A DNA stretch of 64,000 nucleotides from Candidatus Enterousia sp. (GTDB taxonomy: Bacteria > Pseudomonadota > Alphaproteobacteria > Rs-D84). Position 1 is the first letter of the stretch. Each line of letters opens with the position of its first letter. Positions 8,226 to 47,057 of this stretch are shown here, piece after piece. The stretch is from NCBI GenBank assembly GCA_045648945.1, contig JAZROX010000045.1, forward strand, positions 26,362-90,361, written 5' to 3'. The notes beneath the pieces are model-generated. The model ran no database searches, was not told the origin of the DNA, and worked only from the letters and a program-made list of their open reading frames with translations. The position numbers and the translations under genes are program-made.

Positions 8226-8617
8226 TGTTAAAACATGTTTTTGATTTTGGCGACAATAAAAATTTGGCAAGGAACAAACTGTTTGAAGTGGTTTCTAAAG
8301 GTGTTGATTTGTTAGCTAGTGATTATATTAACGAAGAATTGCTGAATTCTTGGAAAAAATATGCAAAAACCGTTCTTGAATTAGTGGATGAAGCGTACGG
8401 AACGCATTATTCGTCAGATTTTTATATATCTGATACGATGCTTGGAAGTAGTTATTTTAGTGCATATTCTTTGCATTTACATGATGTATATAACCACATC
8501 ACTCCGGGATTAAACCCGATACACATCCCATATGGACAATCTCCACAAGATTTTAAAGGAAAATTACAAAGATCTCTGAATGAATTATTAAATATTTTGT
8601 CAAAATTACAGAAATGA
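8225..8617 (+). CDS. Hypothetical protein (island cargo)
   Basis: 130-aa ORF whose start overlaps the stop of the previous ORF (coupling). No recognisable motif. Confidence 0.4.
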   Translation: MLKHVFDFGDNKNLARNKLFEVVSKGVDLLASDYINEELLNSWKKYAKTVLELVDEAYGTHYSSDFYISDTMLGSSYFSAYSLHLHDVYNHITPGLNPIHIPYGQSPQDFKGKLQRSLNELLNILSKLQK

Positions 8618-8632
8618 TATGAAAGTGACATT

Positions 8633-11009: not shown

Positions 11010-12641
11010 TTACTCACCGATCCATTCAGATAAAGCAGTCCATGTTCTTTTTGTATAACAATCAGGTATTGTATCCCATTTGTCAAATATAGTTTTCCCT
11101 AAAGCTTCTCCCTTGTCGATTCTTTTATACCATTCGTTTCCTTTGTCAATGGCATAATTAGCAATTTTGATTCTATCTTCTGGGCAATCCTGCAACCCTG
11201 TTACAGACGGATGTGATAATAAGAGTTCTTCTATTATTGACCATGGTAAATCCTTAAAAATTTGATGCTCTATATCATTACCATTCTCGCAATCAAAAAT
11301 TTTGACGTCTAGGACTTGCAAGTCTGCTTTCTTATCATTTATATCATTTTTATCAGAATCAATAAAAACGCATGTATCAAAACCCAATTCTTTGAGTTTT
11401 TTTGCTCGTTCTATGGTGGTGCTTCCTTCGCCTAGAATATAGAAACAGTCATTTAAGGACATGGAATTTTTATTATTTTTTTGTCGCCATTTGTCCAATG
11501 CTCTACAAATACCTATCTCTGTTTTCCCTTCGCATATGATGATTTTTTTACAAAAAAAACCTTCCGGATTTGCCCTAACGACAGCTTGCCAATTGTCTTT
11601 TTCAGGAATGTTTGTAATAGAGACAAACTTGTTGTCATCGGACTTTTTTACAAGATACAAATCACTTGAAGCAAGTTCCACAATAGCATCACGTGAATGA
11701 GTAGTTAGAAAAATTTGCCCATTGTTTTCATCTTTTAATATTGATACAATTTGTTTAATTCTATCTGGTTCTAATCCTTGTTCTATTTCATCTATTAACA
11801 CTATCCCCCCTTGTTTGGTCAATGCTAATTGGATAGCTATAGAAAAAATGCGTTTTGAACCTTTACCTCTTAAACGTAAAGGTATATTGTTATAATCGTT
11901 TAAACAAATTTTAGTGTCCTTTATAGCAATATCCCTAAAATCGATGGATGTTTTTAAGCCTTCTGCGTTTAATCCGAGTTTGGTAGAAGTTTGGCTTATT
12001 TCATTGGTTGTTTCTAATGTTTGTGGAAAATCAATATTATCAATTTCAGATTTCACTGCTCTCAACCTATCGATAATTATGTTAGAATTTTCTGGTGCTC
12101 CAGAAATCTCTTTAAATAATTGATACAGTGGAGAACCTTTATTCCACGAAAAGTGATTGTCAACATAATCTGATATAAAAAAACAATTTAATTTTGCTCT
12201 ATCTGTTGCACTTATTGCTTTAGGTTCTTGGCGATTTGTAAAGATTTCCCATTTCGGTTCTAGGGTTTTATCTACGGTCAGCCTTATTGTATAAACATCT
12301 TCTAAATTATCATCGTCAGTTAAATCATCTATTACTTCTTTTGTGCTTCTATTATACTGTCTCTTATACAATCCAAACTTTTCTTCTGTTTGTAATACGT
12401 CTGGTATTTCAGAAAGAGTAACTTCGATTTGTATTTGTTGGTTTGTATCACCATCAAAAAAATCTGTGTCGTAAAACTGGAGAGTGTAATTAGGGCATAA
12501 AGCATAATAAATTGAATTTAAAACCGTTGTTTTCCCGCAATCATTCCTACCAATAAGACAAACAAAGTTTTTATCAAAGGTTTCAGATAATGATTTTATT
12601 GTACGAAAGTTTTTTATATCTAATTTTACTATCTTGCTCAA
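11010..12641 (-). CDS. gajA: Gabija GajA, OLD-family ABC ATPase fused to TOPRIM nuclease
   Basis: Walker A GRNDCGKTT, Walker B VLIDEIEQGLEP, and TOPRIM motifs IIICEGKTE and FIDSDKND in the C-terminal third. 543 aa. Confidence 0.8.
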   Translation of the reverse strand: MSKIVKLDIKNFRTIKSLSETFDKNFVCLIGRNDCGKTTVLNSIYYALCPNYTLQFYDTDFFDGDTNQQIQIEVTLSEIPDVLQTEEKFGLYKRQYNRSTKEVIDDLTDDDNLEDVYTIRLTVDKTLEPKWEIFTNRQEPKAISATDRAKLNCFFISDYVDNHFSWNKGSPLYQLFKEISGAPENSNIIIDRLRAVKSEIDNIDFPQTLETTNEISQTSTKLGLNAEGLKTSIDFRDIAIKDTKICLNDYNNIPLRLRGKGSKRIFSIAIQLALTKQGGIVLIDEIEQGLEPDRIKQIVSILKDENNGQIFLTTHSRDAIVELASSDLYLVKKSDDNKFVSITNIPEKDNWQAVVRANPEGFFCKKIIICEGKTEIGICRALDKWRQKNNKNSMSLNDCFYILGEGSTTIERAKKLKELGFDTCVFIDSDKNDINDKKADLQVLDVKIFDCENGNDIEHQIFKDLPWSIIEELLLSHPSVTGLQDCPEDRIKIANYAIDKGNEWYKRIDKGEALGKTIFDKWDTIPDCYTKRTWTALSEWIGE

Positions 12642-12709
12642 TTTTTATTTCTCCTAAAAGTTTTATATGCATGTGATTATGGCGAATGGTTCTTGTTGTA
12701 TTATAGTTT

Positions 12710-13606
12710 TTATTTCAATAATTCTTCCAACACACCTTTTTGCACCATGGCAATGTTCAAGATGTAATCTGTGGTGTTAAATGTGTCGTGCAATGGGCGT
12801 TGGGCAGTTTGCCAACCTAGACCATCAGTAATCCAAATGAATTGGTGACCGTCTTTAGACCATTGTTGATAAATTTTTGCATATTCGCCTGCTGTGGATT
12901 TTAGTTTTGAACCGCCACCACCGTAAAAGTTGGTTTCGATCAGATATAATTTATGTGGTGTGTTTATAGCAAAATCTATTCGTTTGGAAGAGTTTGTAAC
13001 GGTTATATGCTTACCCCATTCACTGTAAATTTTGTCTGCGGTAGCTTGGGCAATGTAGTCATATCCGTTTCTTTTACAAATATCTTTGATAAATAATTCT
13101 GTCAATGTTTCCATTGATGTGCCACTACGATTTTTGCGACCATTTGAATCAAGCCCGACTTCTACACCAAGGAAATAATCTGGAACGGATTTTATTGTTC
13201 GGTCAGAAATCAAATCTAATAAGCCAGATTCTTTCATGAATTTTGCAGCGTCTTTTGCGGACATTGGTTTTGTAAAATCAAAACTAGTTGTAGCGAAAGA
13301 GTTTGCGTGATCGATCAAAGAAATTTTTTTATGGCGTTCTGCGAGTAATGCAGGAATAATCTTAATTATATTTGGATATTCGCTTAAAAGTTGCTCTGCT
13401 GCCTTTTCAATATCTGGTTTGCCAATAAGGGTGTTAAGCAAATTCAATGATACTTCCGCTTCATGGTAATTTTTACATACCTTTTGCCAGTTCACAAAAT
13501 AATCCCAAGATTTGATAGTTTCTTTCAAATTATCAATCAAATACGCAAATACTTCGTCTTCGTTTTTACAACCTAGTAATTTATCAAATATTTGGGAATA
13601 TTTCAT
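12710..13606 (-). CDS. DpnII/MboI-family type II restriction endonuclease (predicted GATC-specific)
   Basis: 298-aa ORF terminal in a Dam-MTase / second-MTase / REase cassette, the same order as dpnM-dpnA-dpnB. Family assignment rests on context and size. Confidence 0.55.
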   Translation of the reverse strand: MKYSQIFDKLLGCKNEDEVFAYLIDNLKETIKSWDYFVNWQKVCKNYHEAEVSLNLLNTLIGKPDIEKAAEQLLSEYPNIIKIIPALLAERHKKISLIDHANSFATTSFDFTKPMSAKDAAKFMKESGLLDLISDRTIKSVPDYFLGVEVGLDSNGRKNRSGTSMETLTELFIKDICKRNGYDYIAQATADKIYSEWGKHITVTNSSKRIDFAINTPHKLYLIETNFYGGGGSKLKSTAGEYAKIYQQWSKDGHQFIWITDGLGWQTAQRPLHDTFNTTDYILNIAMVQKGVLEELLK

Positions 13607-14388
13607 TTTTTATCCTTTTTTTCAGATATATCATATAACCTTTTTTCAGCCAGTTCAACAAATTGTGACTCTTGGTCTATGCCAACAAACAAACGTCCAT
13701 GTTTTATTGCAGCAACACCTGTTGTGCCACTGCCCATAAAAGGATCCAGAATCAAATCGCCAGGATTTGTAGATGCCAAAATAATACGTTCCAATAATTC
13801 TACTGGTTTTTGAGTCGGGTGTTTGCCAAATTTCTTTTCTTCTTTAGTGGGTGTTCCAATAGCCCAAACACTTCGCATTTGGCAACCTGGCTTTTTAATA
13901 AAGTCTTTTGGGAAATCGCCATTCTTCATAGCTTCATAATTAAAAGTATGTTTTGCTTTTTTGTTTTTGCGCGCCCAAAGTAGGGTTTCGTGACTTGCGG
14001 TAAAGTACCGGCAAGACATATTCGGACTGGCATTTGGCTTAAACCAAGTTATGTCGTTTAAAATATGGAACCCAAGTAATTGCATAGCAAAGCCGCACGA
14101 ATATATGCTGTGGTATGTGCCGCTGACCCATAATGTGCCATTGGGTTTCAAAACACGATGACAGGCACAGAGCCATTTTTTATGAAATTCAAAATCATCA
14201 CTAAGACCGTGTGATTTATCCCAATCGCCTTTATTCACAGATACAACACAACCATTTTGACATGTGATACCACCGTTGGAAAGCATGTACGGTGGGTCTG
14301 CAAATATCATATCAAATGTATTTTCCGGAAGTTCAAGTAACTTTTCAAGGCAGTCTGCACAATAAAGACGATACGATTTCTTAGTCAT
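13603..14388 (-). CDS. DNA N6-adenine/N4-cytosine methyltransferase (DpnA-like second methylase)
   Basis: FADPPY catalytic motif near the N-terminus and a SAM-binding DPFMGSGTT motif near the C-terminus (beta-class order). Confidence 0.75.
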   Translation of the reverse strand: MTKKSYRLYCADCLEKLLELPENTFDMIFADPPYMLSNGGITCQNGCVVSVNKGDWDKSHGLSDDFEFHKKWLCACHRVLKPNGTLWVSGTYHSIYSCGFAMQLLGFHILNDITWFKPNASPNMSCRYFTASHETLLWARKNKKAKHTFNYEAMKNGDFPKDFIKKPGCQMRSVWAIGTPTKEEKKFGKHPTQKPVELLERIILASTNPGDLILDPFMGSGTTGVAAIKHGRLFVGIDQESQFVELAEKRLYDISEKKDKK

Positions 14389-15313
14389 AGTTAGTTATAA
14401 GTAATTCACGAATTGCATCACGACCATCTGCCTTGGAATTTATAAGACGTTTAGCCAAAATACGGTTAATTTTATAATCTTTGTACAAATCATCGAAGAA
14501 TGGATCATCAATGTAATTGGTTGGATCTGAATTGCTCAACATCTGCAAAGCCCCCATTTGATGACATTTATCAAAAACCTGTTTCAAACGTTCCTGTTCT
14601 GCATCGTCAAAATCGCCAACGGCATAAGAATTGAAAGATGATGTTTCACGAATTGGACGATATGGAGGATCATAATAAATGAACGTATCGGCTTTTACAT
14701 AATCTGGTGTAGCCCCAAAGTCTGCCTGCATAATAGTAGCAATTTGCAAAGCTTCAGACACGTTGCGTAAGTTTTCTTCATCCAAAATACGTGGATTTGT
14801 ATATTTGCCCATTGGAACATTGAATTTGTTTTTGCTGTTTACACGGAACAACCCATTAAAGCATGTCCGGTTCAAGAATATCGTTAGGGCAGCGCGGCGA
14901 ACAAAACTTGTGCGGTATACATTGGCATCAACATTTTTATCACAGTCGTTATATTCATCGCGTCTGGCATAATAATATGCCTTTGTGTCATCTGTATGTC
15001 TGTATTCGGTTTGAATTTTAGTTAATTCAACAATCAAACTTTCCACATCGCGTTTTATGACGTTGTAAAGAATCACCAATTCTGGGTTGATATCGAATAA
15101 AAACGCTTCCCGGATTTGATATCTATTATATATGTCAAAGAATACGGCACCGCCACCGACAAAGGGTTCTATATACCGTTTGATGCCCCCCATCTTTAGT
15201 TTCAAAGGAAGTTTTTGTTCAATTTGTTCCAACAATTGCCCTTTACCGCCGGCCCACTTCAAAACAGGGCGACATTCGGTATAATCTGGCAATCTGGCTG
15301 GTATCGCTATCAA
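14381..15313 (-). CDS. Dam-type DNA adenine methyltransferase (DpnM-like, GATC)
   Basis: N-terminal LKWAGGKGQLL motif typical of Dam/DpnM (D12 class), plus DPPY. Confidence 0.8.
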   Translation of the reverse strand: MIAIPARLPDYTECRPVLKWAGGKGQLLEQIEQKLPLKLKMGGIKRYIEPFVGGGAVFFDIYNRYQIREAFLFDINPELVILYNVIKRDVESLIVELTKIQTEYRHTDDTKAYYYARRDEYNDCDKNVDANVYRTSFVRRAALTIFLNRTCFNGLFRVNSKNKFNVPMGKYTNPRILDEENLRNVSEALQIATIMQADFGATPDYVKADTFIYYDPPYRPIRETSSFNSYAVGDFDDAEQERLKQVFDKCHQMGALQMLSNSDPTNYIDDPFFDDLYKDYKINRILAKRLINSKADGRDAIRELLITNYD

Positions 15314-33201: not shown

Positions 33202-33295
33202 GGATGGTTGGCAGAGCGGTTGAATGCATCCGACTTGAAATCGGACAAGGTATGAAATAAGACCTTCGGGGGTTCAAATCCCTCACCATCCGCCA
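33202..33295 (+). tRNA. tRNA-Ser (anticodon UGA) with long variable arm
   Basis: Acceptor GGATGGT/ACCATCC, anticodon stem CCGA/TCGG with loop CTTGAAA, long extra arm, T-loop GGTTCAAATCC, discriminator G and encoded CCA. Confidence 0.85.
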
Positions 33296-33455
33296 GTAAA
33301 ATCGGGCATCCCGTGGTAATTCCACGGGATGTTCTTTTTCGCCCCGTTTCCGGCAGTTTTTATACACGACATTACCAGTATATATCATTGTTTTTACCAA
33401 CTATGCCATATTTTACCATATTTATATACCTTACCCAAAAACGCGATGCCACTTT
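33290..33455. repeat. Direct repeat copy 1: tRNA-Ser 3' end (last 6 nt), its terminator hairpin and ~130 bp downstream
   Basis: ccgccagtaaaatcgggcatcccgtggtaattccacgggatgttcttttt...attaccagtatatatcat recurs at 38922-39090 with ~90% identity over the first 100 bp, degenerating beyond. The terminator hairpin is at 33308-33339. Confidence 0.75.
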
Positions 33456-33570: not shown

Positions 33571-34692
33571 ATGTTGATTGATTATAAAAATTATGTTAGC
33601 TCTTTAATTCGTTTTTTTGCACAAAAAAAATGGGAATATTCCTTTTTAAATGGAGATGTTATTTTTATAAAAAACTATACTGATACTGTCACTAGAAAAA
33701 TTAAACCTGAATATTTATTGAACGACTCGCTGTTTTATTCAAAAGTTGTTGAAAGCTTTTCTGCTCTGAATATACCCGTCAAAATAATAAATTCAATAGA
33801 AAATAAAAATTCTGATACAGATTTTATAATTGCTGGATTACAATTAGCTAATAACTCTTTAAAGAAAGATATCGTGAATCACGAATCTTTTTACTCATTG
33901 CAACCAGTTGTGCGTTTAACAAAAACCTCCATGGGAGGACAAAACAATAATATGCTAACATCGTTTATAAACTTATGTTCGGTTGATATAAACACTTCCT
34001 TAGATGAATATATGCAACGTGTGGATCAATGGATTTCTGTTTTTTCGAACCTTTCTTTACATACAAGTGGCTTTAAATTGATAACCAAAAAAATCCAAAA
34101 TAATAGGTTTTATGATGGGGTACCTTTTTATAATGGATTAAAGTTAAAATTCGTGTATCAAAACGTTGATATAGCCGTTGCTAATTTGTTTACCGTTAAT
34201 TGTAAACAAGGTTCAATTCTGGTTTCTGATTTCGGTTCTAGCTATGAACGTGTGTTAGGATGTATCAATGGGAATGATAACTTTTTTAAACCCATATATC
34301 CTAGTTTTCAGGTTTTATATGGCAACTATGTTATAAACGATAGGTTGCGAACGGCAGTTCTGATGTGTATGTCAGGTATAACTCCTAGTGCACATGGCAA
34401 TGGACAAAAATTAAGGAATATAATAAAAGAGGCTACAACAGTACCAGAAATTAGTAGACTAAAAGAAGTCATAACTTATTATTATATGTATTATTCAAAG
34501 TTTATAAATTCTAAAATAGAGTTGCCGTATGTATCCAGTATGATAGAAAAAGAGATTGAACAACAGCAGAAAAAGATTATTTCTGGTAAATATGATAAAA
34601 AAAATGTTACTAAATCAATAGATAATGTTTGTAGCGAAATCATTTTGAAGCAAGTCTTGCAAAGACAATCTATGTTAACCAAATTTAAATAA
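33571..34692 (+). CDS. Hypothetical protein (AT-rich island gene 1)
   Basis: 373-aa ORF with island-type low-GC codon usage. No confident motif. Confidence 0.45.
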   Translation: MLIDYKNYVSSLIRFFAQKKWEYSFLNGDVIFIKNYTDTVTRKIKPEYLLNDSLFYSKVVESFSALNIPVKIINSIENKNSDTDFIIAGLQLANNSLKKDIVNHESFYSLQPVVRLTKTSMGGQNNNMLTSFINLCSVDINTSLDEYMQRVDQWISVFSNLSLHTSGFKLITKKIQNNRFYDGVPFYNGLKLKFVYQNVDIAVANLFTVNCKQGSILVSDFGSSYERVLGCINGNDNFFKPIYPSFQVLYGNYVINDRLRTAVLMCMSGITPSAHGNGQKLRNIIKEATTVPEISRLKEVITYYYMYYSKFINSKIELPYVSSMIEKEIEQQQKKIISGKYDKKNVTKSIDNVCSEIILKQVLQRQSMLTKFK

Positions 34693-34706
34693 TAAAAAGT
34701 TACATT

Positions 34707-36827
34707 ATGAATGTATTTGAGACCCCACAATTTTTTCGAGAAGAAATATTAAAACTTTCAAACTTAGTTAATCGTGAAGAAGATAAATATACTGGCAAGT
34801 CCTTAATCTGTGTTTTTTTTACATCCTATTGCGGTGTTGGTTGTCCTTTTTGCTTTTTTTCCAGCCCTTCTCCAATACATGGAGAAAATGTAGAAAATAA
34901 GTTTAATGCTGATGGAGTTGATAAATTTATAGAATTCGCTAACAGTGCGAATGTAGGATATCTGCAAATATCTGGTGGTGGTGAACCATTTTTAGAAAAA
35001 GAGGCTATTATAAAAAGTATAGAACATATCAATGCGGATAGAATAATTTTAGTAACCAGCGGCATATGGGCCTGTAATATTGAGAATGCTGAAAAATACC
35101 TATTAGATTTGAAAAATGCTTTAAGTCGTAGAACCAACAAAACAAGACTATCTATTAGATTAAGTGTCAGCAAAGATCATAATATTAAATTGAAAAATCG
35201 TCCTCTTTATAACTTATTACAATTATTTGAAAAAAAATATAAATATGACGAGGATTTCACATTACAGCTAAAGACCTTTGATAACGATGATACTTTGACA
35301 ACTTATCTGGACAAATTTAATCCTGGGTGCAAAATAGAATACATTGGTAAAAATTGTTCTGATGATGAAAATCATATCAAAGTTATGCCACAAAAATTCA
35401 GAGTAATTTTTGATTCTGGTTATTCAGTAATAATCGGTCAATCTAGAATTTTTAATTCCAATCTTAGACCAAATATGAATATTCCAAATTCTATTGCAAA
35501 TACAATTAATGTATACGATCAGGATACCTCACAAAGCCAGTCTGATTTTCCATCTCTAGTTTTTAATTCAAACGGAAAACCAGGAATAGATTGGATTATT
35601 GAGTACAATGGAAATGTTTGTGCATGGCAAAACCGTGTTCAAGACAATTTATTAAACATATATGAAGACAAGTATGATTATGTTGTGAATAAAACATTGT
35701 CAGATCCTTTGACTTTGTCTTTTATAGAAAAGGGCGCAAAATATAGAGAAAAAATCATACAAGAAGTTGCCCCGCACACCGTAAAATTGGTAAAGGCTGT
35801 TAGTATACGTGATTATGCTGGAACATTATTGTTTGAAGATGAAAAGACCAGACTATATTACACATTACGCGTTTTGCAAGATTACATGAAAGAAGGGAGA
35901 ATAAATCAAGAAATATTTAGGCAACTGCCTTCAGAGATTCGATCGATACTGCAATTAACACAACAAGATTTAGTCGCATTGTATAAAAAATCTAATTATT
36001 CAATATTATCACAAGAACTAAGCAAGAATCATAACGCACAAACTTTTGGGGATTTTTTAGAGTTGGTCAAACTAGGACACTATAAACTCAATGCGTATGA
36101 TATACAAAAAGCTATCAAATATTACAATTCCATAAGTGGTTGCCAGATAAGTAGTATAGACGAGATACCTCATTTGACGGGAATTGATGTCGAGAGACGC
36201 TTTACAAAAAGAGTAATGACAATGAAAAAATTAGGACAAAATACAACAGGTTTGAAACATATATACATATACCGTCACGGAGAAACTTTTTGGAATACAG
36301 AAGGTATTGTTAAAGGTCAAATGGATGATCTAAACGTAAGTTTTACTGATAAAGGGTTAGAACAAATAAATACAATTGCGCAAGATATGAAGTTTAATCA
36401 AATTGAAGAAATATATGCATCTGATTTGGCAAGAACTAAAAATACCGCTCTGTTAGCTAATACAGATTTACAGCTTCCATTATCTTTTCATTCTGAATTA
36501 CGCGCATTGAATATGGGAAAATATCAAGGAAAACCATTCAAAGATTTTATTAGTGATCCTGCTGTACAAACAGCTTTCATAAACCACGATATTTGCATTC
36601 CTGATGGTGAGAGCATTAATCAGTTAAATACTAGACTTTTTACATTTTTAAACAAAATTGTATCGCAAACCACAGCTAAAAATATCGCAATAATTATGCA
36701 TAGTGCAGCTATAAGCAACTTAAAAGCCTATATTACAAAAGAAAAATATGAAGATATAGAACGATGTGAAATTTTATATGCAAATAAAAAATTTACAGTA
36801 ATAAAAACTAGACAAAAGACGTATTAA
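34707..36827 (+). CDS. Radical SAM domain protein fused to a C-terminal histidine-phosphatase (PGM-branch) domain
   Basis: N-terminal CGVGCPFC (CX3CX2C) and GGGEPFL SAM-binding motif. C-terminal IYRHGETFWN (RHG catalytic motif) and IIMHSAA second His. 706 aa. Confidence 0.7.
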   Translation: MNVFETPQFFREEILKLSNLVNREEDKYTGKSLICVFFTSYCGVGCPFCFFSSPSPIHGENVENKFNADGVDKFIEFANSANVGYLQISGGGEPFLEKEAIIKSIEHINADRIILVTSGIWACNIENAEKYLLDLKNALSRRTNKTRLSIRLSVSKDHNIKLKNRPLYNLLQLFEKKYKYDEDFTLQLKTFDNDDTLTTYLDKFNPGCKIEYIGKNCSDDENHIKVMPQKFRVIFDSGYSVIIGQSRIFNSNLRPNMNIPNSIANTINVYDQDTSQSQSDFPSLVFNSNGKPGIDWIIEYNGNVCAWQNRVQDNLLNIYEDKYDYVVNKTLSDPLTLSFIEKGAKYREKIIQEVAPHTVKLVKAVSIRDYAGTLLFEDEKTRLYYTLRVLQDYMKEGRINQEIFRQLPSEIRSILQLTQQDLVALYKKSNYSILSQELSKNHNAQTFGDFLELVKLGHYKLNAYDIQKAIKYYNSISGCQISSIDEIPHLTGIDVERRFTKRVMTMKKLGQNTTGLKHIYIYRHGETFWNTEGIVKGQMDDLNVSFTDKGLEQINTIAQDMKFNQIEEIYASDLARTKNTALLANTDLQLPLSFHSELRALNMGKYQGKPFKDFISDPAVQTAFINHDICIPDGESINQLNTRLFTFLNKIVSQTTAKNIAIIMHSAAISNLKAYITKEKYEDIERCEILYANKKFTVIKTRQKTY

Positions 36828-36869
36828 ATGAGTATTATGTAGCTTGGTTAAGTAATAATCTAAGATAAG

Positions 36870-37586
36870 GTGTGTCCGATGAATGTATTATTGAACGGTG
36901 GTGGTTGCGCCGAAAAAACAAAAGAAATTTATACTTTTTTAAATAAAATCATAAACAATTCAAAACCTATATTGTGTATTCCCCTTGCCCGGGATAGAGA
37001 TGATAGTGGATATGAAAATTCTAAGGTTTGGTTGCAGAATGAATTAAATGACATTGATTATTCTGGTTTGGTTATGGCAGATTCATCCGATTATATATCA
37101 AAGATGAATTTAAATGATTTTGGATTGATTTACATTAGTGGGGGGAATACGTACAAATTATTGAAAGAATTAAAGGATACAGAAGCATTTAATAAAATAA
37201 GAGCCTATTTTCTTTCTGGTGGTATTATTTATGGATCTAGTGCCGGGGCGGCAATATTTGGCGCTTCTTTACGTTCCATAGCATATGCCGATAAAAACGA
37301 TGTTAAATTGCAAAATATTCAAGGATATGATTTGTTTTCCGGAATATCAATAGCCGCACACTATACTAATAAAAATGAAGAAAAAACTCAAATTGCAACA
37401 GAATACCTGATACAATTATCAAAAACTGAACCAGTTGTAGCTTTACCAGAAGAAGATACTATATATATACACGATGGTCTTGTTACCGTGTTTGGTTCTC
37501 GCGATTATTACATATTCAGGAATGGTGTTCGAAAAGCATTTACTACTGGCCAAACCATGCCAAAAGAAGTATTTTTGAATCTGTAA
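36870..37586 (+). CDS. Peptidase S51 family (dipeptidase E / cyanophycinase-like)
   Basis: ISGGNTYKL and GSSAGAAIFG nucleophile-Ser motifs typical of S51. 238 aa. Confidence 0.6.
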   Translation: MCPMNVLLNGGGCAEKTKEIYTFLNKIINNSKPILCIPLARDRDDSGYENSKVWLQNELNDIDYSGLVMADSSDYISKMNLNDFGLIYISGGNTYKLLKELKDTEAFNKIRAYFLSGGIIYGSSAGAAIFGASLRSIAYADKNDVKLQNIQGYDLFSGISIAAHYTNKNEEKTQIATEYLIQLSKTEPVVALPEEDTIYIHDGLVTVFGSRDYYIFRNGVRKAFTTGQTMPKEVFLNL

Positions 37587-37640
37587 ACATTACTGAATTG
37601 TTAAAATCAATTGATGTTGACAAATGTAAATTGCAGTTCT

Positions 37641-38525
37641 CTATTTTGTTGCCATTTTTTGGTTGCAGACTAATTGTCCGCATGCGCCTGCAATATCTTG
37701 TCCTTTGCTAATTCTAATAATTGTTTGTACACCTACGCTTTCCAATCTTTGTTTAAATATATTTGCTTTATCCTCTTTTGCACGAGACATTGAGATTGTT
37801 TGCGTTTCGTTATACAATAATATTTGAACTTTAAAATATTTAGGGTCAATCAATTTTATTAGGTCTGCTAAATGCTTTTCAGAATCGTTCACATTGTTTA
37901 TTAACATATAACTTAATGTCACTCTTTTATTGGTCTGAATTACATATTCTTTGCAAGCCCCCAACAGTGTGCTTATATCATATTTTTTATTAACAGGCAT
38001 CAGTTGTGAACGTTGGTTGTCGTAAGGAGAATGCAACGAAACAAAAAATTTGATGTTTTTTAATTCATTTTGTAGCGTGGCAAGCTCTGCTATTTTGTCT
38101 ACTATACCTACCGATGATATAGGAATTGTTTCCAAATTTGGGTCGTATTGGCTTATTCGTTTGCAAAAATGTTTCAAATTGATAAAATTATCTAGCGGTT
38201 CCCCCATTCCCATTACCACGGCACTATATTTAATATTTTCTGATTCTATATTTCTGTATATTAAATCAGACCTGATAAGTCTGATTTCATCCAGCATTTC
38301 ATTATGAGATAAGTTAGCATAAAATCCATTATGACCAGTTGCACAAAACAAGCAGTTCATTTTACAACCCGCTTGTGAAGATATACAAATATGGTATCTA
38401 TCGTACGGGATCCCATTTCTTTGGTTTATTCTGTAGTAAACAGCCTCGCACAAATTACCGAAATTTGTGCGAAATATGTACTTTATGCTTCCGTCTTGAG
38501 ATCTCAAAGAATTCAGAATTTTCAT
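37641..38525 (-). CDS. RlmN/Cfr-family radical SAM RNA methyltransferase homolog lacking the N-terminal accessory domain
   Basis: HICISSQAGCKMNCLFCATG, MGMGEPLDNF and C-terminal DIAGACGQL retain both mechanistic Cys of RlmN/Cfr. Only 294 aa (about 70 residues shorter at the N-terminus). Confidence 0.65.
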   Translation of the reverse strand: MKILNSLRSQDGSIKYIFRTNFGNLCEAVYYRINQRNGIPYDRYHICISSQAGCKMNCLFCATGHNGFYANLSHNEMLDEIRLIRSDLIYRNIESENIKYSAVVMGMGEPLDNFINLKHFCKRISQYDPNLETIPISSVGIVDKIAELATLQNELKNIKFFVSLHSPYDNQRSQLMPVNKKYDISTLLGACKEYVIQTNKRVTLSYMLINNVNDSEKHLADLIKLIDPKYFKVQILLYNETQTISMSRAKEDKANIFKQRLESVGVQTIIRISKGQDIAGACGQLVCNQKMATK

Positions 38526-38921
38526 ATAACAGACCCTTGCTAATTACATATTAGAATAAAAAAAACAAGTTTCAACCGGTTTTATATAAAAAACACAACA
38601 TTCAGCTTGTTATTAGAACACAGATATCCTGGTAATATACTTTGTATCAAATGTGGTGATTCTTGCATATAGACAAATTTTCCCAAATTTCGAACATCTT
38701 TTGAACCATAGGTAATATCTATTTGATATTACTTGATTGTTTGTAAAGACATTACTATCAAAAAGGTGCGTTTTATTTATCACTTTTTTTAACAATGTAA
38801 TCGGTGCTTTTCGCATAATTTTGGCTTTTGTGCACTACAAATATTGTTGGCTGTACTTGTTATAAAATCTATTTTTTCGTTCACACGGGCAAAACTTCCT
38901 GTTTTTCGAATACCTTTTGAG

Positions 38922-39090
38922 CCGCCAGTAAAATCGGGCATCCCGTGGTAATCCCACGGGATGTTCTTTTTTGCCCGATTTTCCGCAGTTTTTGGCTATG
39001 ATATTACCAGTGTATATCATCATCCGCGCCCAAACCGCCAAAATTCACCACAACCATATACCTTGCCCAATTTCCCGATGCCAGTTTTCC
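38922..39090. repeat. Direct repeat copy 2 of the tRNA-Ser 3'-end/downstream segment
   Basis: See 33290-33455. Includes a second copy of the terminator hairpin catcccgtggtaatcccacgggatg and its T-tract. Confidence 0.75.
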
Positions 39091-39145
39091 CTTGAATGGC
39101 CGCGTTTTTCTGTTAATATCGTAACCGATAAACAAAGGATTTTAC

Positions 39146-40162
39146 ATGGTTGATGCGAATTTAAAAACAGAAGCAAAATTGACGTTGCCAGAGAGGGTTG
39201 ATAATAACCTGGGTTATTCAATCAAAGTTTTGTCTGAAGGAGTAGCGTCTTTACTTAAACTTCCAGAGAAAGTTGTTGATACAGTCGTAATATCTGGTGC
39301 CACCTTGTTTAAACCATTGGTCGCATATTTTAACGGTAAGGCTACTATTATAAGTGCACGGAGTTTTGTGGAAACCCAAAATATTCGTAAAGAATTGAGT
39401 CAGTGTCAATTGGCAATCAATGTTGCAAAAAACTTGGCAATTAAACATCAATCTGGTCAAGAAATCCCGAAAGGAATTGTTGATACAGACACTTTATTTG
39501 CTATACAAAACGCAGCAGCAGAAACAACGGATAAAGATTTTTTGGAATTTTGGGCACACTTGTATACAGAAGAAGCATGCAAACCTAATACGATAAGCAA
39601 AAAAACTGTTGAATTATGTAAAGTATTAGATAAACAAGTTGCAGAAATTTTAGAAAAAAAGATATTCCCATACTGTGCTAGCGGATTCTTTTTTGCGGCC
39701 AGAGAATTTAGTGTTTATGAAGTTTCTAAAGCCGAAGATTATGGTTTCCTAACACAAAAGGATATTTTATTAAATCCAAAAGCTCCTAATGATAATGTAA
39801 TATTACAATTTGGTCAGTATACAGTTGTATGTAGAATTGGTTTCAGTGTTTTGCCATCACATCCAAATTTTTCATTATCTATGTCTGGAGAAGAAATACG
39901 AAATATAATTATTAATAAAGGTATGAATATTGACTTTGATATATTGATAAATTGTTTAAAAGAAGCTTCAAAAAATTGGCAATTATCTGATAAATTTAAA
40001 GACCATATTGTTAAATTTGTGCCAGGAAAACAAATTGATACAAATTTTATTGTTGTTCAAAATGATAAAATCATTTACCCGGAGAGTTGGCAGAATAAAT
40101 CTGTACGGGATTATAATAATGCATGTTTAGAAACGTTAGATATCAAATTAATACCAGCTTAA
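39146..40162 (+). CDS. Hypothetical protein (AT-rich segment beyond second repeat)
   Basis: 338-aa ORF. No motif recognised. Confidence 0.4.
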   Translation: MVDANLKTEAKLTLPERVDNNLGYSIKVLSEGVASLLKLPEKVVDTVVISGATLFKPLVAYFNGKATIISARSFVETQNIRKELSQCQLAINVAKNLAIKHQSGQEIPKGIVDTDTLFAIQNAAAETTDKDFLEFWAHLYTEEACKPNTISKKTVELCKVLDKQVAEILEKKIFPYCASGFFFAAREFSVYEVSKAEDYGFLTQKDILLNPKAPNDNVILQFGQYTVVCRIGFSVLPSHPNFSLSMSGEEIRNIIINKGMNIDFDILINCLKEASKNWQLSDKFKDHIVKFVPGKQIDTNFIVVQNDKIIYPESWQNKSVRDYNNACLETLDIKLIPA

Positions 40163-40785
40163 TATAATTGATTTTCTCCAGCAATTGTGAACAAATCATT
40201 AACGTTGATTTTTAATTTTCCAGACAAGATTTCATTGATTTTGTCTGGGTTCATGTATGCGATGTCCAAATAACGATAAAACTGGCGCGGGGACGTGTGC
40301 AGATTGCGGATGATATTATCAACCCCACCATCGCGTTCATATAATTCTCGATACTTCCATGCGGTGGCAAAGGCTTTTAGAATCAGATGGTTGTTGTCGG
40401 TGACATTTAATATACCGTTTTTACCACGGTCGTATACCGTGTTGACGTATTTGCGTAAGAATACTTTTTCAGTAATTGTTATGCTGTTGTCGCCAATTAT
40501 GTATTCCATTTTATCCGCATTTTGGTTTACATAATGTTCAGATACAAATTGTTGCAATTTTGCGGAATCGGTCGTAATTGTATAAATCAGCTGTTCCTGC
40601 GAACACACAACTTTTTCAATCAGAGATTGAATTAAATTGCGTTTTTCTGCGAAATTCATGTTTGCAATATCTATGTGTTTTAATGTAGTGGCCAGGTTTA
40701 TGGGCAGATTCGACATATCACTGTTCAGAAAATCTGTTATCGTTTTTATAACAATTTCATCTACTACGCTAAGCATGCCAAACAA
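40159..40785 (-). CDS. Hypothetical protein
   Basis: 208-aa ORF. No motif recognised. Confidence 0.35.
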   Translation of the reverse strand: MFGMLSVVDEIVIKTITDFLNSDMSNLPINLATTLKHIDIANMNFAEKRNLIQSLIEKVVCSQEQLIYTITTDSAKLQQFVSEHYVNQNADKMEYIIGDNSITITEKVFLRKYVNTVYDRGKNGILNVTDNNHLILKAFATAWKYRELYERDGGVDNIIRNLHTSPRQFYRYLDIAYMNPDKINEILSGKLKINVNDLFTIAGENQLY

Positions 40786-40823
40786 CCTTTTTATGACTTG
40801 TAATTATCAGATTGACATATTTT

Positions 40824-41603
40824 TTATTCTCTGCCTTTGCCTAGATTTATGTGCTGTTGTTCCGACTTCATGAGTTTATATGTCTTTGCACCAGGCTTTG
40901 ATATGATTTCGGTCATCGTTTGATTGTTTTTATCATCTGTTTGAACCATAATTGCGGCCCCTTCATCAACAGCGTATCCCCATTTGTTTTCTTTGGTTAG
41001 CATCTTCCTTATAGAATTTCTGGACACAGAACCTTCAACATCTTTGTTTTCAGATTTAGTATTCCAATGTGGAACGAAATATCCACGAACCAACCCCAAT
41101 GCTGGTTTTGTTTTGAGTGTTTCAAGATTGCCGCTGTCAAAATCATCATCTTCATCGTTGCCATAATACTCAAACCAAGCACATCCACCGGCACTATTAC
41201 CCGCCATAATTATCCCTTGGTCGTATGCTTGACGTAATAGCTTATCAACCCCCGTATCACTCAACACTTTCATGAGATACGTGACATTGCCACCACCAAC
41301 ATAGATAATATCTGCCCCTAAAATAATCTTTTTAAGATCATCTGCATTTGGTCTTTTGGAAGCGTCAATCAAATTCAAATTTTCTACAACACATCCAAAT
41401 TGTTCAGTAAAATACTTTTCGATTGCCAAGAAACGAGATAAATCATCACCATGTGCAGCACCAATAAATACCAGTTTTGGGTGCTGTTTGCCGGTAAGTT
41501 CTACCATTTTTTTATCAATCTCGAATGTTTCCATCGGCTTTTGTATTCCATTCTTCATCTGACCAAACGAACCACCACCGATTGCAATAACGGTTTTTGT
41601 CAT
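40824..41603 (-). CDS. Peptidase S51 family (cyanophycinase/peptidase E-like), second copy
   Basis: GGGNVTYLM and AGNSAGGCAW motifs. 259 aa. Confidence 0.55.
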   Translation of the reverse strand: MTKTVIAIGGGSFGQMKNGIQKPMETFEIDKKMVELTGKQHPKLVFIGAAHGDDLSRFLAIEKYFTEQFGCVVENLNLIDASKRPNADDLKKIILGADIIYVGGGNVTYLMKVLSDTGVDKLLRQAYDQGIIMAGNSAGGCAWFEYYGNDEDDDFDSGNLETLKTKPALGLVRGYFVPHWNTKSENKDVEGSVSRNSIRKMLTKENKWGYAVDEGAAIMVQTDDKNNQTMTEIISKPGAKTYKLMKSEQQHINLGKGRE

Positions 41604-42270: not shown

Positions 42271-42395
42271 CCTTGCCCCGTTTTTATATAAATCAGGGCT
42301 GTCACATGGCCCTGAATATTTTTTATCTACCCGCTTGACAAACATATTTTTTAGTGTTATATATACCACCAGACAATAACCAAAAGGGGTCTGTA

Positions 42396-43250
42396 ATGAG
42401 AAAGAGTCTGAATCAAGAATTAAGAGAAGCGTTTGTTGCTAATGATGCAGAACGCGTAAAATCTTTGTTGGCCGCTGGTGCTGATAAGAATCGCCGTGTA
42501 AGAAATGAATATCTGTTATGTAATTGCAGTCACAACGAGACAGAAGAAAATATTAAAGTTACAAAAATGCTGCTTGATAATGGTGCAAACCCTAACTGGG
42601 TTGATCCGGATCCGAGTTGGTATGAAACTCCATTGATGGAAAGTTTGTACTATTTTAACTTTAATCTGGCGCAATTATTGATTGATAACGGTGCCAAGGT
42701 TAACATGCACAGCAGTGGTGACACGCCGTTGACATGGTTTGCCGGCCGAACCGATGATGGTCATTTGGCAACTATTAAATTCTTGCATAAAAACGGTGCA
42801 AACCTTGATGCCAAGAATTATAAAGGCCAAACAGCCCTTATGAGAGTTGCTGGATTTGACACTATCATTTCTGCTGATTTGTTTTGCGATAAAACCGATT
42901 GGCTTATTGAACCGATTGAATATTTGTTATCGAAAGGTGCGAAAGTCAACCTGCGTGATAAGGAAGGCAAAACCGCATTGCTGCATTCGTTGGGTCAAGA
43001 TTGGAACAAATATTACAGTTGGAACAATGAAACGGCACTTCAATACAAAGACAACTTTTCGGCGACTTTCTATTATGAAATTCCAACGATATTGTTGTCA
43101 AACGGTGCGCATGTAGGCATAAAAGATAAATCTGGTAAGAATGCCATGAATTATGCGGCGGCGGATGAAGAAAAAATGGACTTGTTCGCACGTGCAATCG
43201 ATGATTCAAACAAATTCTTGCACAGAAAAATCGTTGTTATGTCCAGATAA
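42396..43250 (+). CDS. Ankyrin-repeat protein
   Basis: At least five ANK repeats (LLAAGADKN, LLDNGANPN, LIDNGAKVN, LHKNGANLDAKNYKGQTALM, LLSKGAKVNLRDKEGKTALLH). ATG at 42396 preferred over the track start. Confidence 0.75.
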   Translation: MRKSLNQELREAFVANDAERVKSLLAAGADKNRRVRNEYLLCNCSHNETEENIKVTKMLLDNGANPNWVDPDPSWYETPLMESLYYFNFNLAQLLIDNGAKVNMHSSGDTPLTWFAGRTDDGHLATIKFLHKNGANLDAKNYKGQTALMRVAGFDTIISADLFCDKTDWLIEPIEYLLSKGAKVNLRDKEGKTALLHSLGQDWNKYYSWNNETALQYKDNFSATFYYEIPTILLSNGAHVGIKDKSGKNAMNYAAADEEKMDLFARAIDDSNKFLHRKIVVMSR

Positions 43251-43277: not shown

Positions 43278-44105
43278 ATGAAAAAACGTTTTCCAGGGGT
43301 CAACCCCAAAGAAATCGCCAAACAAGAGGTTGCAAACGCAACTGGCATCAGCAGAAGCACCTTTATGGATGAAAAAGGTATTCCTTCAGCCGGTGATTTG
43401 CACCCTGTTTATGTCAAACCGTACAGTAAACCGAAGTTTGATTTAAAAACATGGCTGTTGACGAATTTAAAGGTAAATTTGTTTGCACCGATTTTTTGGG
43501 CTGTGATCTTTGGTGGTATAAACGAGTATGACCACCCGATACGTGCGATGTTTTATAACGTTTATAACCCAAAACCAAAAGCACAGTCGGAAAAAAGCCC
43601 GGTGCTGGGAATTGAAACGAAAAACAAGCCGTTTTTCTGGGTCAATTTGTCGTTTGCATTATCATATATGCTTCTAACTGCTGGCATCTTAATGCGTCAT
43701 TACCGCAAAGATAAACGTAGCGAGACAGCAAGATTTGCAAATGAAAATGCAACAGTTGACATGATGTTGGCGATTAAATCCATAAAAGAAGCCGGTAAAA
43801 AAGTCAACTTGAACGTAACGGATGAAACCGCCAAGAAACTGATCGAGGTATGTCCGCATATTATATCACGCATGTCTGCCGATGAACGTGTCTATTTTGA
43901 TATGCTGATTGACGGTGATATTGAAAGCAAGAACGAGGAAATGTTCAAAAACTTTGCTCTTGCGGTTATGGATGGACACTTGCGTTCAAATCCGGAAGAT
44001 TTGCAGATGGTTTTGGATGCCTTTGATGAAACATCCATCGCATTATTGCTGTCAGATATGTACAGACAAAATCTGTTATCTCAGCAAAAGCAAAAAAATA
44101 AATAA
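43278..44105 (+). CDS. Hypothetical membrane protein
   Basis: 275 aa with two central hydrophobic helices. Terminator hairpin at 44108-44136. Confidence 0.45.
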   Translation: MKKRFPGVNPKEIAKQEVANATGISRSTFMDEKGIPSAGDLHPVYVKPYSKPKFDLKTWLLTNLKVNLFAPIFWAVIFGGINEYDHPIRAMFYNVYNPKPKAQSEKSPVLGIETKNKPFFWVNLSFALSYMLLTAGILMRHYRKDKRSETARFANENATVDMMLAIKSIKEAGKKVNLNVTDETAKKLIEVCPHIISRMSADERVYFDMLIDGDIESKNEEMFKNFALAVMDGHLRSNPEDLQMVLDAFDETSIALLLSDMYRQNLLSQQKQKNK

Positions 44106-45668: not shown

Positions 45669-47057
45669 TTAGTTAATTATTATCTGTTTGTCTACATTTA
45701 TATTTTTTGCAAACATTTCATCATGCGACACCAACAATATCGCACCACGATATTGATTCAATGCGTCTTCCAGTATCGCAATACTTTTGATTTCAAGGTT
45801 GTTAGTCGGTTCGTCCAGAATCAGCAAGTCAGGCTGATTTTCGCCGCCCAGTATTGCCGCCAATGTCGCCTTTAATAATTCCCCACCCGACAAAACACAT
45901 GCGCGTTTATTTGACGCGTCCCCGCGGAAACCAAAGTTCGCCGCAATCGCATGTGCATCGTGTTTCAAAACGCCAGAGATATCCATTATATTTTCAACAA
46001 TGGTTTTATCCCTGTCCAGCACCGATAAATCTTGATTCAAATACGCAATTTTACCAAATGTTTTAACTGTGCCGGATTCTGGTTTCAAATCACCACAAAT
46101 GATTTTAAGTAAAGTGGATTTGCCCGAACCATTTTTGCCGGTTATACGAATGCGTTGCCCACCGTACATAGAAAAATCAAACCCGTTAAAGATGCGCCGG
46201 TTGCCATATCCAAAACCCAGGTTCGATATTTGAATCAGTTCTTTGCTGTAAAACGGCTTGCTGGGCAACGGAATTTTGATTTTATCATCCACCATTTGTG
46301 CCGATAATTCCGCCTGCAAATTCATTTGTGTATCCAGTTTCTTTTGAATTATTGCACGCTTTTTTGCTTCGGTCTCAATGCTTTTCCCTTTAAGGGCATT
46401 TGCATCAATACGGCTGCGGCGTGCATTGGCGATTTCTTTCTTTTGCTTTGCCTCGTGATGTTGCCGCGTATTCTGGGCTATGTTGATAGTCTCGGTCAAA
46501 CGGCCAATTTCTTTTTTGGTATTCACATATTTGGAATATATGGTTTCTTGCTCGGCGCGTTTTTGTGCAACATAGAAATCATAGTTTCCGCCATAGACTT
46601 TGATTTTGCCGTTTGCTATTTCAATAATTTTATCCATTTTCTGCAATAATTCCCGGTCATGGGATACAATTACCGTCCCGAATGGGTAAGACATCAAATC
46701 ATTGAAAAATCGTTGTTTGGCATCACTGTCCAGGTTATTTGTCGGCTCGTCCAGCAACAGTATCGCCGCACCGCTGTTAAATGCACGACGCAGTTCGGCA
46801 CTTTGCCGTTCACCGCCACTTTTGGAATCCAATGCGTTTATTTGATTCAGCATGTAAACGGACGCATTTCGTGCAACATTGCCAGCGTCCGGCACGATAT
46901 CACCGGCCAACAATTTCAACAGTGTTGTTTTGCCGGAACCATTGTCGCCAACAATCGCGACCCGGTCTGAATCAGAAAATGCAACAGACACACCATCCAA
47001 AATCGGATTTAATGAATCATAAGAAAAAGATACTTTTGATAAAGAAATTACGAACAT
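45669..47057 (-). CDS. ABC-F family ATPase (tandem ABC domains, no TMD)
   Basis: Two Walker A motifs (GDNGSGKTTLLK, GKNGSGKSTLLK), two LSGGE signatures, and an interdomain linker rich in K/E/Q. 462 aa. Confidence 0.75.
   Translation of the reverse strand: MFVISLSKVSFSYDSLNPILDGVSVAFSDSDRVAIVGDNGSGKTTLLKLLAGDIVPDAGNVARNASVYMLNQINALDSKSGGERQSAELRRAFNSGAAILLLDEPTNNLDSDAKQRFFNDLMSYPFGTVIVSHDRELLQKMDKIIEIANGKIKVYGGNYDFYVAQKRAEQETIYSKYVNTKKEIGRLTETINIAQNTRQHHEAKQKKEIANARRSRIDANALKGKSIETEAKKRAIIQKKLDTQMNLQAELSAQMVDDKIKIPLPSKPFYSKELIQISNLGFGYGNRRIFNGFDFSMYGGQRIRITGKNGSGKSTLLKIICGDLKPESGTVKTFGKIAYLNQDLSVLDRDKTIVENIMDISGVLKHDAHAIAANFGFRGDASNKRACVLSGGELLKATLAAILGGENQPDLLILDEPTNNLEIKSIAILEDALNQYRGAILLVSHDEMFAKNINVDKQIIIN

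Follow-up and report, generated by a model that had tools for sequence, protein, structure and literature searches.

A 64-kb window of the genome of Candidatus Enterousia sp. (contig JAZROX010000045.1 of assembly GCA_045648945.1, positions 26,362 to 90,361; window coordinates count from the first nucleotide of this stretch) carries a gene for a short class A radical S-adenosylmethionine (SAM) methylase of the RlmN/Cfr family. Next to it lie three genes encoding a stand-alone paralogue of the alanyl-tRNA synthetase (AlaRS) core, a fusion of a radical-SAM enzyme with a histidine phosphatase, and a serine peptidase of family S51 (Table 1). The presence of ParC, PriA, a short ProRS and NrdDG points to a chromosomal location of the window and, as does the closest related cassette, probably to an alphaproteobacterial origin.

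The methylase keeps all catalytic residues of the family. Alignment to solved structures placed Cys47 at the position of the resolving cysteine (C118 in E. coli RlmN, C105 in Cfr) and Cys282, within AGACGQL, at that of the methyl-carrier cysteine (C355 in RlmN, C338 in Cfr). The cluster motif CX3CX2C is C54-x3-C58-x2-C61, and GMGEPL spans residues 106-111. With this motif, two further conserved cysteines and homology over the full length of the core, the protein belongs to class A. RlmN was the best-scoring curated family: TIGR00048, the RlmN equivalog model, aligned with E=1e-69 over profile positions 70-346 of 355, its 235.1 bits being below the 290-bit cut-off. The Cfr models NF000424, TIGR04432 and PRK14453 gave 160-166 bits, far from their cut-offs of 468-550, and Pfam recognized the generic Radical_SAM domain alone. 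Solved RlmN structures were matched with E=4e-42 (6fz6; 148 bits) and E=5e-37 (131 bits), and the Cfr structure with E=2e-35 (126 bits), with a core identity to RlmN of 36-40%. Motifs, TIGR00048 and structure alignments therefore bear out the original prediction, which had assigned the protein to RlmN/Cfr from the cysteine before the cluster, CX3CX2C, GMGEPL and the AGACGQL cysteine. The enzyme is functional-looking, with RlmN/Cfr-type chemistry in which a cysteine-carried methyl group would be transferred to an amidine carbon of adenine.

The N-terminal HhH2 domain is absent and the methylase gene is intact. Residue 4 of the methylase aligned with residue 83 of E. coli RlmN, and the N-terminus of full-length relatives was longer by 64 residues on average. 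According to precomputed annotation, Pfam PF21016 (RlmN N-terminal, HhH2) is present in these full-length relatives and in neither the methylase nor its short relatives. Six codons 5' of the ATG there is an in-frame TAA, no start codon intervenes, and a six-frame search of the 64-kb window with a profile of the missing domain gave nothing (best E=0.5, located elsewhere). Since the upstream stop and the blank search agree, the absence is real; a longer upstream start, which had been named as what would undo the claim of a missing domain of ~70 residues, was rejected together with a split or frameshifted N-domain. The alignment start and the lack of PF21016 also support that claim. A whole-family profile found the methylase as its sole match in the window. 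The 67-aa open reading frame (ORF) just upstream (38613-38816, minus) had no matches and was not conserved at related loci.

The four genes sit on an island that was rightly taken to be acquired: G+C content is 31-34% over ~33-41 kb of the window vs 44-46% in the flanks, and a direct repeat of 116 nt, which begins in the 3' end of tRNA-Ser(UGA), encloses the methylase and its three neighbours in a low-GC segment of 5.6 kb. No integrase was found between the two repeats. Low GC runs on past the right repeat (39021-41603), and this part possibly represents an older island inserted at that tRNA gene.

Table 1. Features of the 64-kb window
Feature	Position	Strand	Remarks
tRNA-Ser (anticodon UGA), integration target	33202..33295	+	ARAGORN
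Left direct repeat, attL-like	33273..33388	.	last 23 nt of tRNA-Ser, terminator hairpin (33304-33334) and ~55 nt downstream
Stand-alone AlaRS-core paralogue	33571..34692	+	373 aa; aminoacylation core and start of tRNA-recognition domain
Radical-SAM::histidine phosphatase fusion	34707..36827	+	706 aa
S51-family serine peptidase (PepE/cyanophycinase family)	36870..37586	+	238 aa, GTG start; Pfam PF03575 E=4e-27
Short RlmN/Cfr-family class A radical-SAM methylase	37641..38525	-	294 aa, ATG start
Right direct repeat, attR-like	38905..39020	.	83% identical to left; second terminator hairpin copy (38936-38966)
DUF2806/TIGR03899-like protein	39146-40162		past right repeat
Family-less 208-aa protein	40159-40785		past right repeat
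Second S51 peptidase	40824-41603		past right repeat; distant from first S51 (38% over 45 aa)
Gabija GajB	9582-11009		PADLOC E=2e-117
Gabija GajA	11010-12641		PADLOC E=3e-152
Type II restriction enzyme	12710-13606		beside Gabija genes
Two type II methyltransferases	13603-14388 and 14381-15313		beside Gabija genes

Pfam gave nothing above threshold for the AlaRS-like protein. An exhaustive search collected 257 cluster representatives of its family, and a profile of 70 sequences aligned with archaeal AlaRS 2ztg (E=2e-26, residues 11-268 and 336-421); Pfam tRNA-synt_2c was matched by 31 of the 70. In addition, the top 22 Foldseek matches of its AlphaFold2 model in the PDB were all AlaRS. This model is of low confidence (predicted local distance difference test, pLDDT, of 61), and the sequence profiles agree with it independently. 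Adenylate chemistry is plausible for the protein, since Arg115 of motif 2 and Glu226/Arg227 of motif 3 are conserved, as is Asp220, which was aligned by eye to the Asp of the AlaRS motif DTGMGLER.

The fusion combines a radical-SAM part (residues ~1-510, with C42-x3-C46-x2-C49) and a branch-1 histidine phosphatase with an RHGE motif (~517-706), and its AlphaFold2 model reached a pLDDT of 91. The phosphatase domain resembles CobC/PhoE-type structures. The radical-SAM part belongs to no curated family; weak matches in the cluster region were to viperin for 28 of 32 family members, followed by YydG, NrdG and MoaA. A cobamide link, with 2-methyladenine as lower ligand and a CobC-like phosphatase, was considered and dropped for want of supporting context. 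The S51 peptidase and methylase genes converge with a gap of 54 nt, the methylase being oriented opposite to the other three. PADLOC-DB v2 gave no match for the methylase, the S51 peptidase or the AlaRS-like protein, a weak pVip match for the fusion (E=6e-5) and no system call, and PHROGs returned generic matches only.

The distribution of these genes was followed by scanning the radical-SAM family in one genome per species and clustering the neighbours; genes in the fetched loci are simple longest-ORF calls. The resulting 47 loci span Alphaproteobacteria, Clostridia, Bacilli, Patescibacteria, Chlamydiae, Verrucomicrobia, Legionellaceae and archaea. An S51 gene adjoins the radical-SAM gene in 19 loci, an AlaRS-like gene or one of a second cluster, C4, in ~17, and the short methylase in eight (the window, L001, L002, L011, L012, L023, L027 and L054). 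Locus L001 carries all four genes, at 66-72% identity each, beside prophage genes. L002 and L011, the latter from a goat-colon alphaproteobacterial metagenome-assembled genome (MAG), share the methylase, fusion and S51 peptidase at 59-67%, with a C4-type protein of ~326 aa, not an AlaRS-like one, as the upstream partner. In L002 all four genes point the same way, with a tyrosine integrase gene after them. L003, cut off by the end of its contig, includes the methylase and the S51 peptidase. In translated comparisons, homology of the window to L001, L002, L011 and L003 was limited to 33571-38548, with essentially no synteny in the flanks. Since homology stops at the cassette and the flanks are unlike, the four genes are regarded as a mobile unit. 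They form, at 33571-38525, a conserved cassette of adjacent and co-inherited components, in line with the earlier description of the neighbours as biosynthetic-looking, and their composition suggests an adenine-nucleotide or aminoacyl-nucleoside substrate.

The three-gene core also occurs without the methylase (L174, L014, L016-18 and L037). At L023 (10273-11000), from a Staskawiczbacteria MAG, the methylase beside the fusion gene is split into two ORFs of 146 and 134 aa; this copy is a probable pseudogene, consistent with a dispensable module. Since the core is present with and without the methylase, and the L023 copy is split, the methylase can be seen as an optional fourth module of the tailoring type. 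The three core activities of radical-SAM enzyme, S51 peptidase and phosphatase are linked by natural fusions in one protein, found in P0167 (951 aa) and at L053 (8001-9671).

The C4 protein, which often fills the AlaRS-like slot in other cassettes (L002 1853-2815, L011, L014, L016-L019, L021, L022, L027, L032, L036 and L037), is collinear with the AlaRS-like profile (hhalign E=4e-5 over 251 columns), while four control families gave nothing. Its motifs 2 and 3 are degenerate and point to a possible non-adenylating or aminoacyl-tRNA-dependent form. Three of the C4 loci (L019, L032 and L036, of the Bacilli/'Mycoplasma sp. CAG:611' type) show a RelA/SpoT-like protein, the fusion, a 613-aa B12-binding radical-SAM enzyme, C4, S51 and a metallo-beta-lactamase-fold hydrolase, without the short methylase.

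Versions of the radical-SAM protein without phosphatase adjoin a deoxynucleoside kinase (dNK)-like kinase, adenylate kinase, a nucleotidyltransferase-like protein, RelA/SpoT, a B12 radical-SAM enzyme or ATP-binding cassette (ABC) transporters. Such versions were found in Chlamydiae, Verrucomicrobia and Legionellaceae (L030, L031, L033-L035, L040-L042 and L046), where their neighbours are proteins of ~358 aa (hydrophobic at the N-terminus), 199 aa (nucleotidyltransferase-like) and ~275 aa. Several of these loci also carry genes for ABC transporters, and the arrangement suggests an exported product in intracellular bacteria. At L024, L025, L028 and L055 a protein of ~1,125 aa, C11, is encoded directly 5' of the phosphatase-less radical-SAM gene and kinases. 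Its domains, read by eye, are an N-terminal LuxR-type helix-turn-helix, a P-loop NTPase and tetratricopeptide repeats, and it could be either a pathway regulator or a sensor of the STAND (signal transduction ATPases with numerous domains) type. Phage carriage of the cassette was rejected: IMG/VR held no relatives of the radical-SAM partner family, its RlmN-family matches were nearly all full-length forms, and the PHROGs matches were the generic ones mentioned above.

A homologue search with the methylase returned a graded series of proteins of 277-310 aa without PF21016, with identities falling from 72% to 37%, and then canonical RlmNs of 340-375 aa with PF21016 at 34-41%. A metagenome scan with the short-clade alignment was dominated by canonical RlmN, one locus in 80 (L115) being short-like. 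A neighbour-joining tree of 245 core columns covered 120 proteins from the database, four more encoded at fetched loci, and the E. coli RlmN, 6fz6 RlmN and Cfr cores. It placed the N-domain-less proteins on one branch and RlmN, Cfr and the Cfr-like full-length proteins on the other. About 45 N-domain-less proteins of 277-324 aa, whose first cluster cysteine lies at about residue 47-75 (54 in the methylase), make up a clade of their own, with a bootstrap of 69/100, and the subclade of cassette-type enzymes that includes the methylase reached 100/100. C47, C54/58/61, GMGEP, C282 and E27 are invariant across the short clade. The Cfr core clustered with the full-length proteins P0038, P0083 and P0110, and the methylase fell outside that group. 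Thus, where a choice between an RlmN and a Cfr clade had been envisaged, the methylase stands in neither; judged from this distance tree, whose support is moderate, it is neither an RlmN orthologue nor a Cfr, strict monophyly of the short clade being beyond the proof such a tree gives. Of the description "truncated", the short N-terminus stands, while a one-off loss does not, given a clade of ~45 members. An earlier phylogeny of the family also contained an additional small subfamily of unknown function, which may or may not correspond to the short clade (Kaminska 2010, PMC2836569).

Gene neighbourhoods were then compared at six other short-clade methylases, and none is ribosomal or tRNA-modifying. 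L004 encodes a dNK-like kinase, PhyH, a B12 radical-SAM enzyme, adenylate kinase, a SAM hydroxide adenosyltransferase-like protein and a phosphoenolpyruvate mutase, and L009 an adenylate kinase, PhyH, NUDIX and a choline/aminoglycoside-type kinase. CTP_transf-like and Asn-synthase-type enzymes are found at L006, and an AMP-binding enzyme, HAD, carbamoyltransferase, carrier protein, pyridoxal phosphate-dependent decarboxylase and nucleotidyltransferase at L175. The bacterial L178 and the nanoarchaeotal L180 both contain a class II aminoacyl-tRNA synthetase (aaRS) core of the Asp/Lys/Asn type, an S66 peptidase and a class I methyltransferase. These stand-alone cores match PF00152 (E=3e-30 and 9e-27) and lack the anticodon-binding domain. 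Nearly all of the six contexts include adenine-nucleotide-handling or adenylate-forming enzymes. In addition, a truncated class II aaRS core, a serine peptidase and a short methylase come together again as a trio at L178 and L180, where the aaRS and the peptidase belong to other families than those of the window. Since the trio recurs with non-homologous parts, a functional link is argued rather than shared ancestry. At L180, a full-length Asp/Asn/Lys-type aaRS (8026-9330; 434 aa, with anticodon-binding domain) directly follows the truncated core and the short methylase, and could be a resistant copy of the target.

These neighbourhoods lead to the reading that is tentatively preferred here, with a confidence somewhat short of even: instead of acting on A2503 of 23S rRNA, the short methylase would C-methylate adenine in a nucleotide or aminoacyl-nucleoside that the cassette produces. 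The fusion enzyme would modify and dephosphorylate a nucleotide, and the AlaRS-like enzyme would bind the adenosine moiety and attach or activate a small amino acid. The S51 peptidase might cleave the aminoacyl link, for processing or self-protection. The methylase itself would place a methyl group on C2 or C8 of the adenine of a free nucleotide, a nucleoside or an aminoacyl-adenylate-type intermediate, and the cassette as a whole may serve to make an antimetabolite or antiviral nucleotide. In favour of this are the invariant catalytic residues, the co-inherited cassette, the nucleotide- and adenylate-related neighbours, the absence of the RNA-anchoring domain and the replacement of RNA contacts described below. 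Of the retargeted chemistry that the original prediction had raised, a move off 23S rRNA stands as a live possibility; where tRNA or another RNA had been named as the new substrate, the cassette partners suggest an adenine nucleotide or aminoacyl-nucleoside.

One parallel is ascamycin. There, the truncated AlaRS-like protein AcmF transfers an aminoacyl group to dealanylascamycin, a C2-chlorinated adenosine analogue, and reversal of this step is the hypothesised role of the hydrolase AcmE (PMC12945691). In the cassette, too, a truncated AlaRS-like protein with aminoacylation and tRNA-recognition parts lies beside a hydrolase, and the C2-modified adenosine of ascamycin, with chlorine, might correspond to one with a methyl group. 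Unlike AcmF, in which the ATP- and amino-acid-binding residues for alanine activation are lost, the 373-aa protein keeps Arg115, Asp220 and Glu226/Arg227, while C4 is degenerate; no close relationship to AcmF was detectable. Moreover, the cassette hydrolase is of family S51 whereas AcmE is an alpha/beta-hydrolase, sulfamate genes are missing from the cassette, and the remaining enzymes differ.

Several points weigh against the preferred reading. Among class A radical-SAM methylases, to our knowledge only RlmN and Cfr have been characterised, and RNA is the sole kind of substrate known for the class. The context evidence is guilt by association throughout, with no known product for any member of either family, and no transporter, regulator or precursor genes were found within the 5.6-kb island. 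The split of the short clade from RlmN/Cfr has the moderate support given above, from a neighbour-joining tree of 245 columns. Lys or Arg at the position of Cfr K250 and the motif SxDGSxK are kept, and the basic cores of the cassette subclade (net charge +5.7, isoelectric point 8.6) would be compatible with an RNA substrate. These values are like those of many canonical RlmN cores, while E. coli RlmN and Cfr themselves have slightly acidic ones, so that charge and isoelectric point were set aside as uninformative proxies for RNA binding. Finally, the AlaRS-like partner could provide tRNA binding in trans.

A ribosomal substrate would be expected if the methylase served self-resistance, that is, if the cassette made an inhibitor of the peptidyl-transferase centre, such as a puromycin- or aminoacyl-nucleoside-like compound, and the methylase protected A2503 or another rRNA adenine in the fashion of Cfr. 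Cfr is a clinically important multidrug-resistance determinant, an A2503 C8-methyltransferase (PDB 9P0P) that confers the PhLOPSA phenotype (phenicols, lincosamides, oxazolidinones, pleuromutilins and streptogramin A). The methylase resembles it in catalytic family and horizontal mobility. The complete RlmN/Cfr catalytic set and the basic core suit such a role; presence or absence within a biosynthetic cassette would also suit a resistance gene, and the convergent orientation probably gives the methylase its own promoter. The RNA-binding features are less favourable. RNA contacts were taken from the cryogenic electron microscopy complex of Cfr with rRNA (PMC13001441), mapped onto the alignment and compared with 76 full-length proteins. 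Cfr R184 corresponds to Arg in 69 of the 76 and to Glu132 in the cassette subclade, R185 to His or Arg and to Thr133, S187 to Thr or Ser and to Pro135, R249 to Arg or Lys and to mostly Thr (Lys200 in the window methylase), T325 to Thr (66/76) and to Ile269, and S103 to Thr or Ser and to His45. Changes also affect the residues of the radical-SAM domain by which the U-turn phosphate of the RNA is held. Also missing is the HhH2 domain, which anchors Cfr on the rRNA H90-H92 junction (PMC13001441) and in which single substitutions, R25A and Q28A, already reduce activity and resistance (PMC2836569, Kaminska et al.); with it goes the hold of Cfr on H91/H92.

Around A2503 itself, Tyr41 (Cfr Y97) and Ser101 (S151) are of the Cfr type, whereas Arg43 (W101), His45 (S103), Ile272 (S328), Ser273 (Q329) and Lys274 (F330) are unlike Cfr, positions 41 and 43 having been assigned by eye from the alignment. 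The Cfr-type set formed by Y97, W101, S103, S151, Q329 and F330 is thus incomplete in the methylase. Q329, here Ser, matters for C8-specific methylation, and residues discriminating C8 from C2 have been proposed (10.1101/2025.09.18.677109); applied to the methylase, these discriminators gave a mosaic pattern and no call on regiochemistry. Together with the low scores against the Cfr models and the position outside the Cfr clade, these differences make self-resistance unlikely. Of the Cfr-type resistance proposed earlier, the mobile and intact family enzyme stands, and resistance itself is weakened by the scores, the missing HhH2 and the replaced contacts. The clostridial Cfr-like proteins ClCs and ClCp, in which A2503 methylation was undetectable (PMC5062987), offer a precedent for other substrates among RlmN/Cfr family members. 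In the tree, the sequences grouping with Cfr, which may or may not be proteins of this clostridial kind, have full-length sizes (343-347 aa), and the short clade branches apart from them.

RlmN is a dual-specificity C2-methyltransferase of 23S rRNA A2503 and tRNA A37, as the molecule names of its structures also state. In line with this natural dual specificity, the methylase could be tRNA-directed, the AlaRS-like partner substituting for the N-domain and presenting the tRNA, adenine being methylated at A37 or at the acceptor end, and the phosphatase and peptidase acting on the tRNA end or its aminoacyl group. The partner includes the helical start of the tRNA-recognition domain, truncated aaRS cores recur beside short methylases, and the core of the methylase is basic. 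Nevertheless, many short-clade methylases are not accompanied by any aaRS-like gene and lie among kinases, NUDIX or carrier-protein enzymes, the upstream partner in most cassettes is C4 with its degenerate catalytic motifs, and no anticodon-binding domain is present in the stand-alone Asp/Lys/Asn-type cores. With the U-turn phosphate residues changed as well, a tRNA substrate is judged improbable.

That the gene is a shortened housekeeping RlmN or a decaying, functionless copy is highly improbable: RlmN is the closest curated model at 235 bits, yet the score is below the equivalog cut-off, the gene lies inside a low-GC island between direct repeats at a tRNA gene, its closest relatives share the cassette in unrelated genomes, and the ORF is intact with catalytic residues conserved over a 45-member clade. 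RlmN itself (TIGR00048; PDB 3RFA/5HR7/6FZ6) shares with the methylase the fold, the cluster motif, both cysteines, GMGEP and a beta-sheet extension with SxDGxxK. It differs in having the first ~80 residues (in E. coli numbering, including HhH2), in belonging to a separate clade with its RNA contacts in place, and in its housekeeping context as opposed to a mobile cassette.

If the cassette does act on a free nucleotide or aminoacyl-nucleoside, as preferred above, a wider reading can be considered, which is possible and for the moment doubtful. N-domain-less RlmN-like enzymes would be the first small-molecule class A methylases, and the trio of aaRS core, S51/S66 peptidase and short methylase a new family of mobile, compact pathways. 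Their products would be C-methylated antimetabolites of the aminoacyl-nucleoside or nucleotide kind, acting as toxins directed at aaRSs or translation or as antiviral nucleotides, and the peptidase would confer built-in immunity. MccF-type S66 peptidases hydrolyse and detoxify aminoacyl-adenylate analogues. Next to the truncated aaRS core and short methylase of L178 and L180, the S66 peptidase takes the place of the window S51 enzyme. S51 is another peptidase family, and the microcin C system differs further by its MccB-type ThiF adenylyltransferase, precursor peptide and exporter, none of which was found here. The fusion recalls prokaryotic viperins with adjacent nucleotide kinases, since its radical-SAM relatives adjoin adenylate or dNK-like kinases and most gave the weak viperin matches noted above; however, these matches cover the cluster-binding region only (best E=7e-6), and the window fusion scored 19 bits against a cut-off of 180.

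The literature search yielded no paper that places short RlmN-like enzymes in small-molecule pathways or describes the four-gene cassette. The short clade is best described as a recurrent, uncharacterised branch of a well-known family, which would become categorically new only with a demonstrated small-molecule substrate. In practice, homology alone is not sufficient ground for annotating short RlmN-like genes as rlmN or cfr, or for flagging them as resistance determinants. Their conserved partners offer a testable route to a possible new substrate class, with adenine C-methylation of free nucleotides or aminoacyl-nucleosides. Two of the partner families, the AlaRS-core paralogue and the radical-SAM/phosphatase fusion, are uncharacterised, and the partner families are spread over gut and host-associated bacteria, Patescibacteria (candidate phyla) and archaea.

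Elsewhere in the window, a second low-GC block at ~7-15 kb contains a defence island (9582-15313) with the Gabija and type II restriction-modification genes of Table 1. About 7 kb from the methylase and outside the repeat-bounded island, a 462-aa ABC-F protein is encoded on the minus strand (45669-47057); it scored 392 bits against a cut-off of 380 for the NCBIfam 'ribosomal protection-like ABC-F family protein'. An ankyrin-repeat protein (42354-43250) is weakly similar to Legionella Dot/Icm Ank effectors and is followed by an ORF at 43278-44105, with 33 nt repeated upstream (42371/43253). The ankyrin-repeat protein and the following ORF hint at a host-associated lifestyle.

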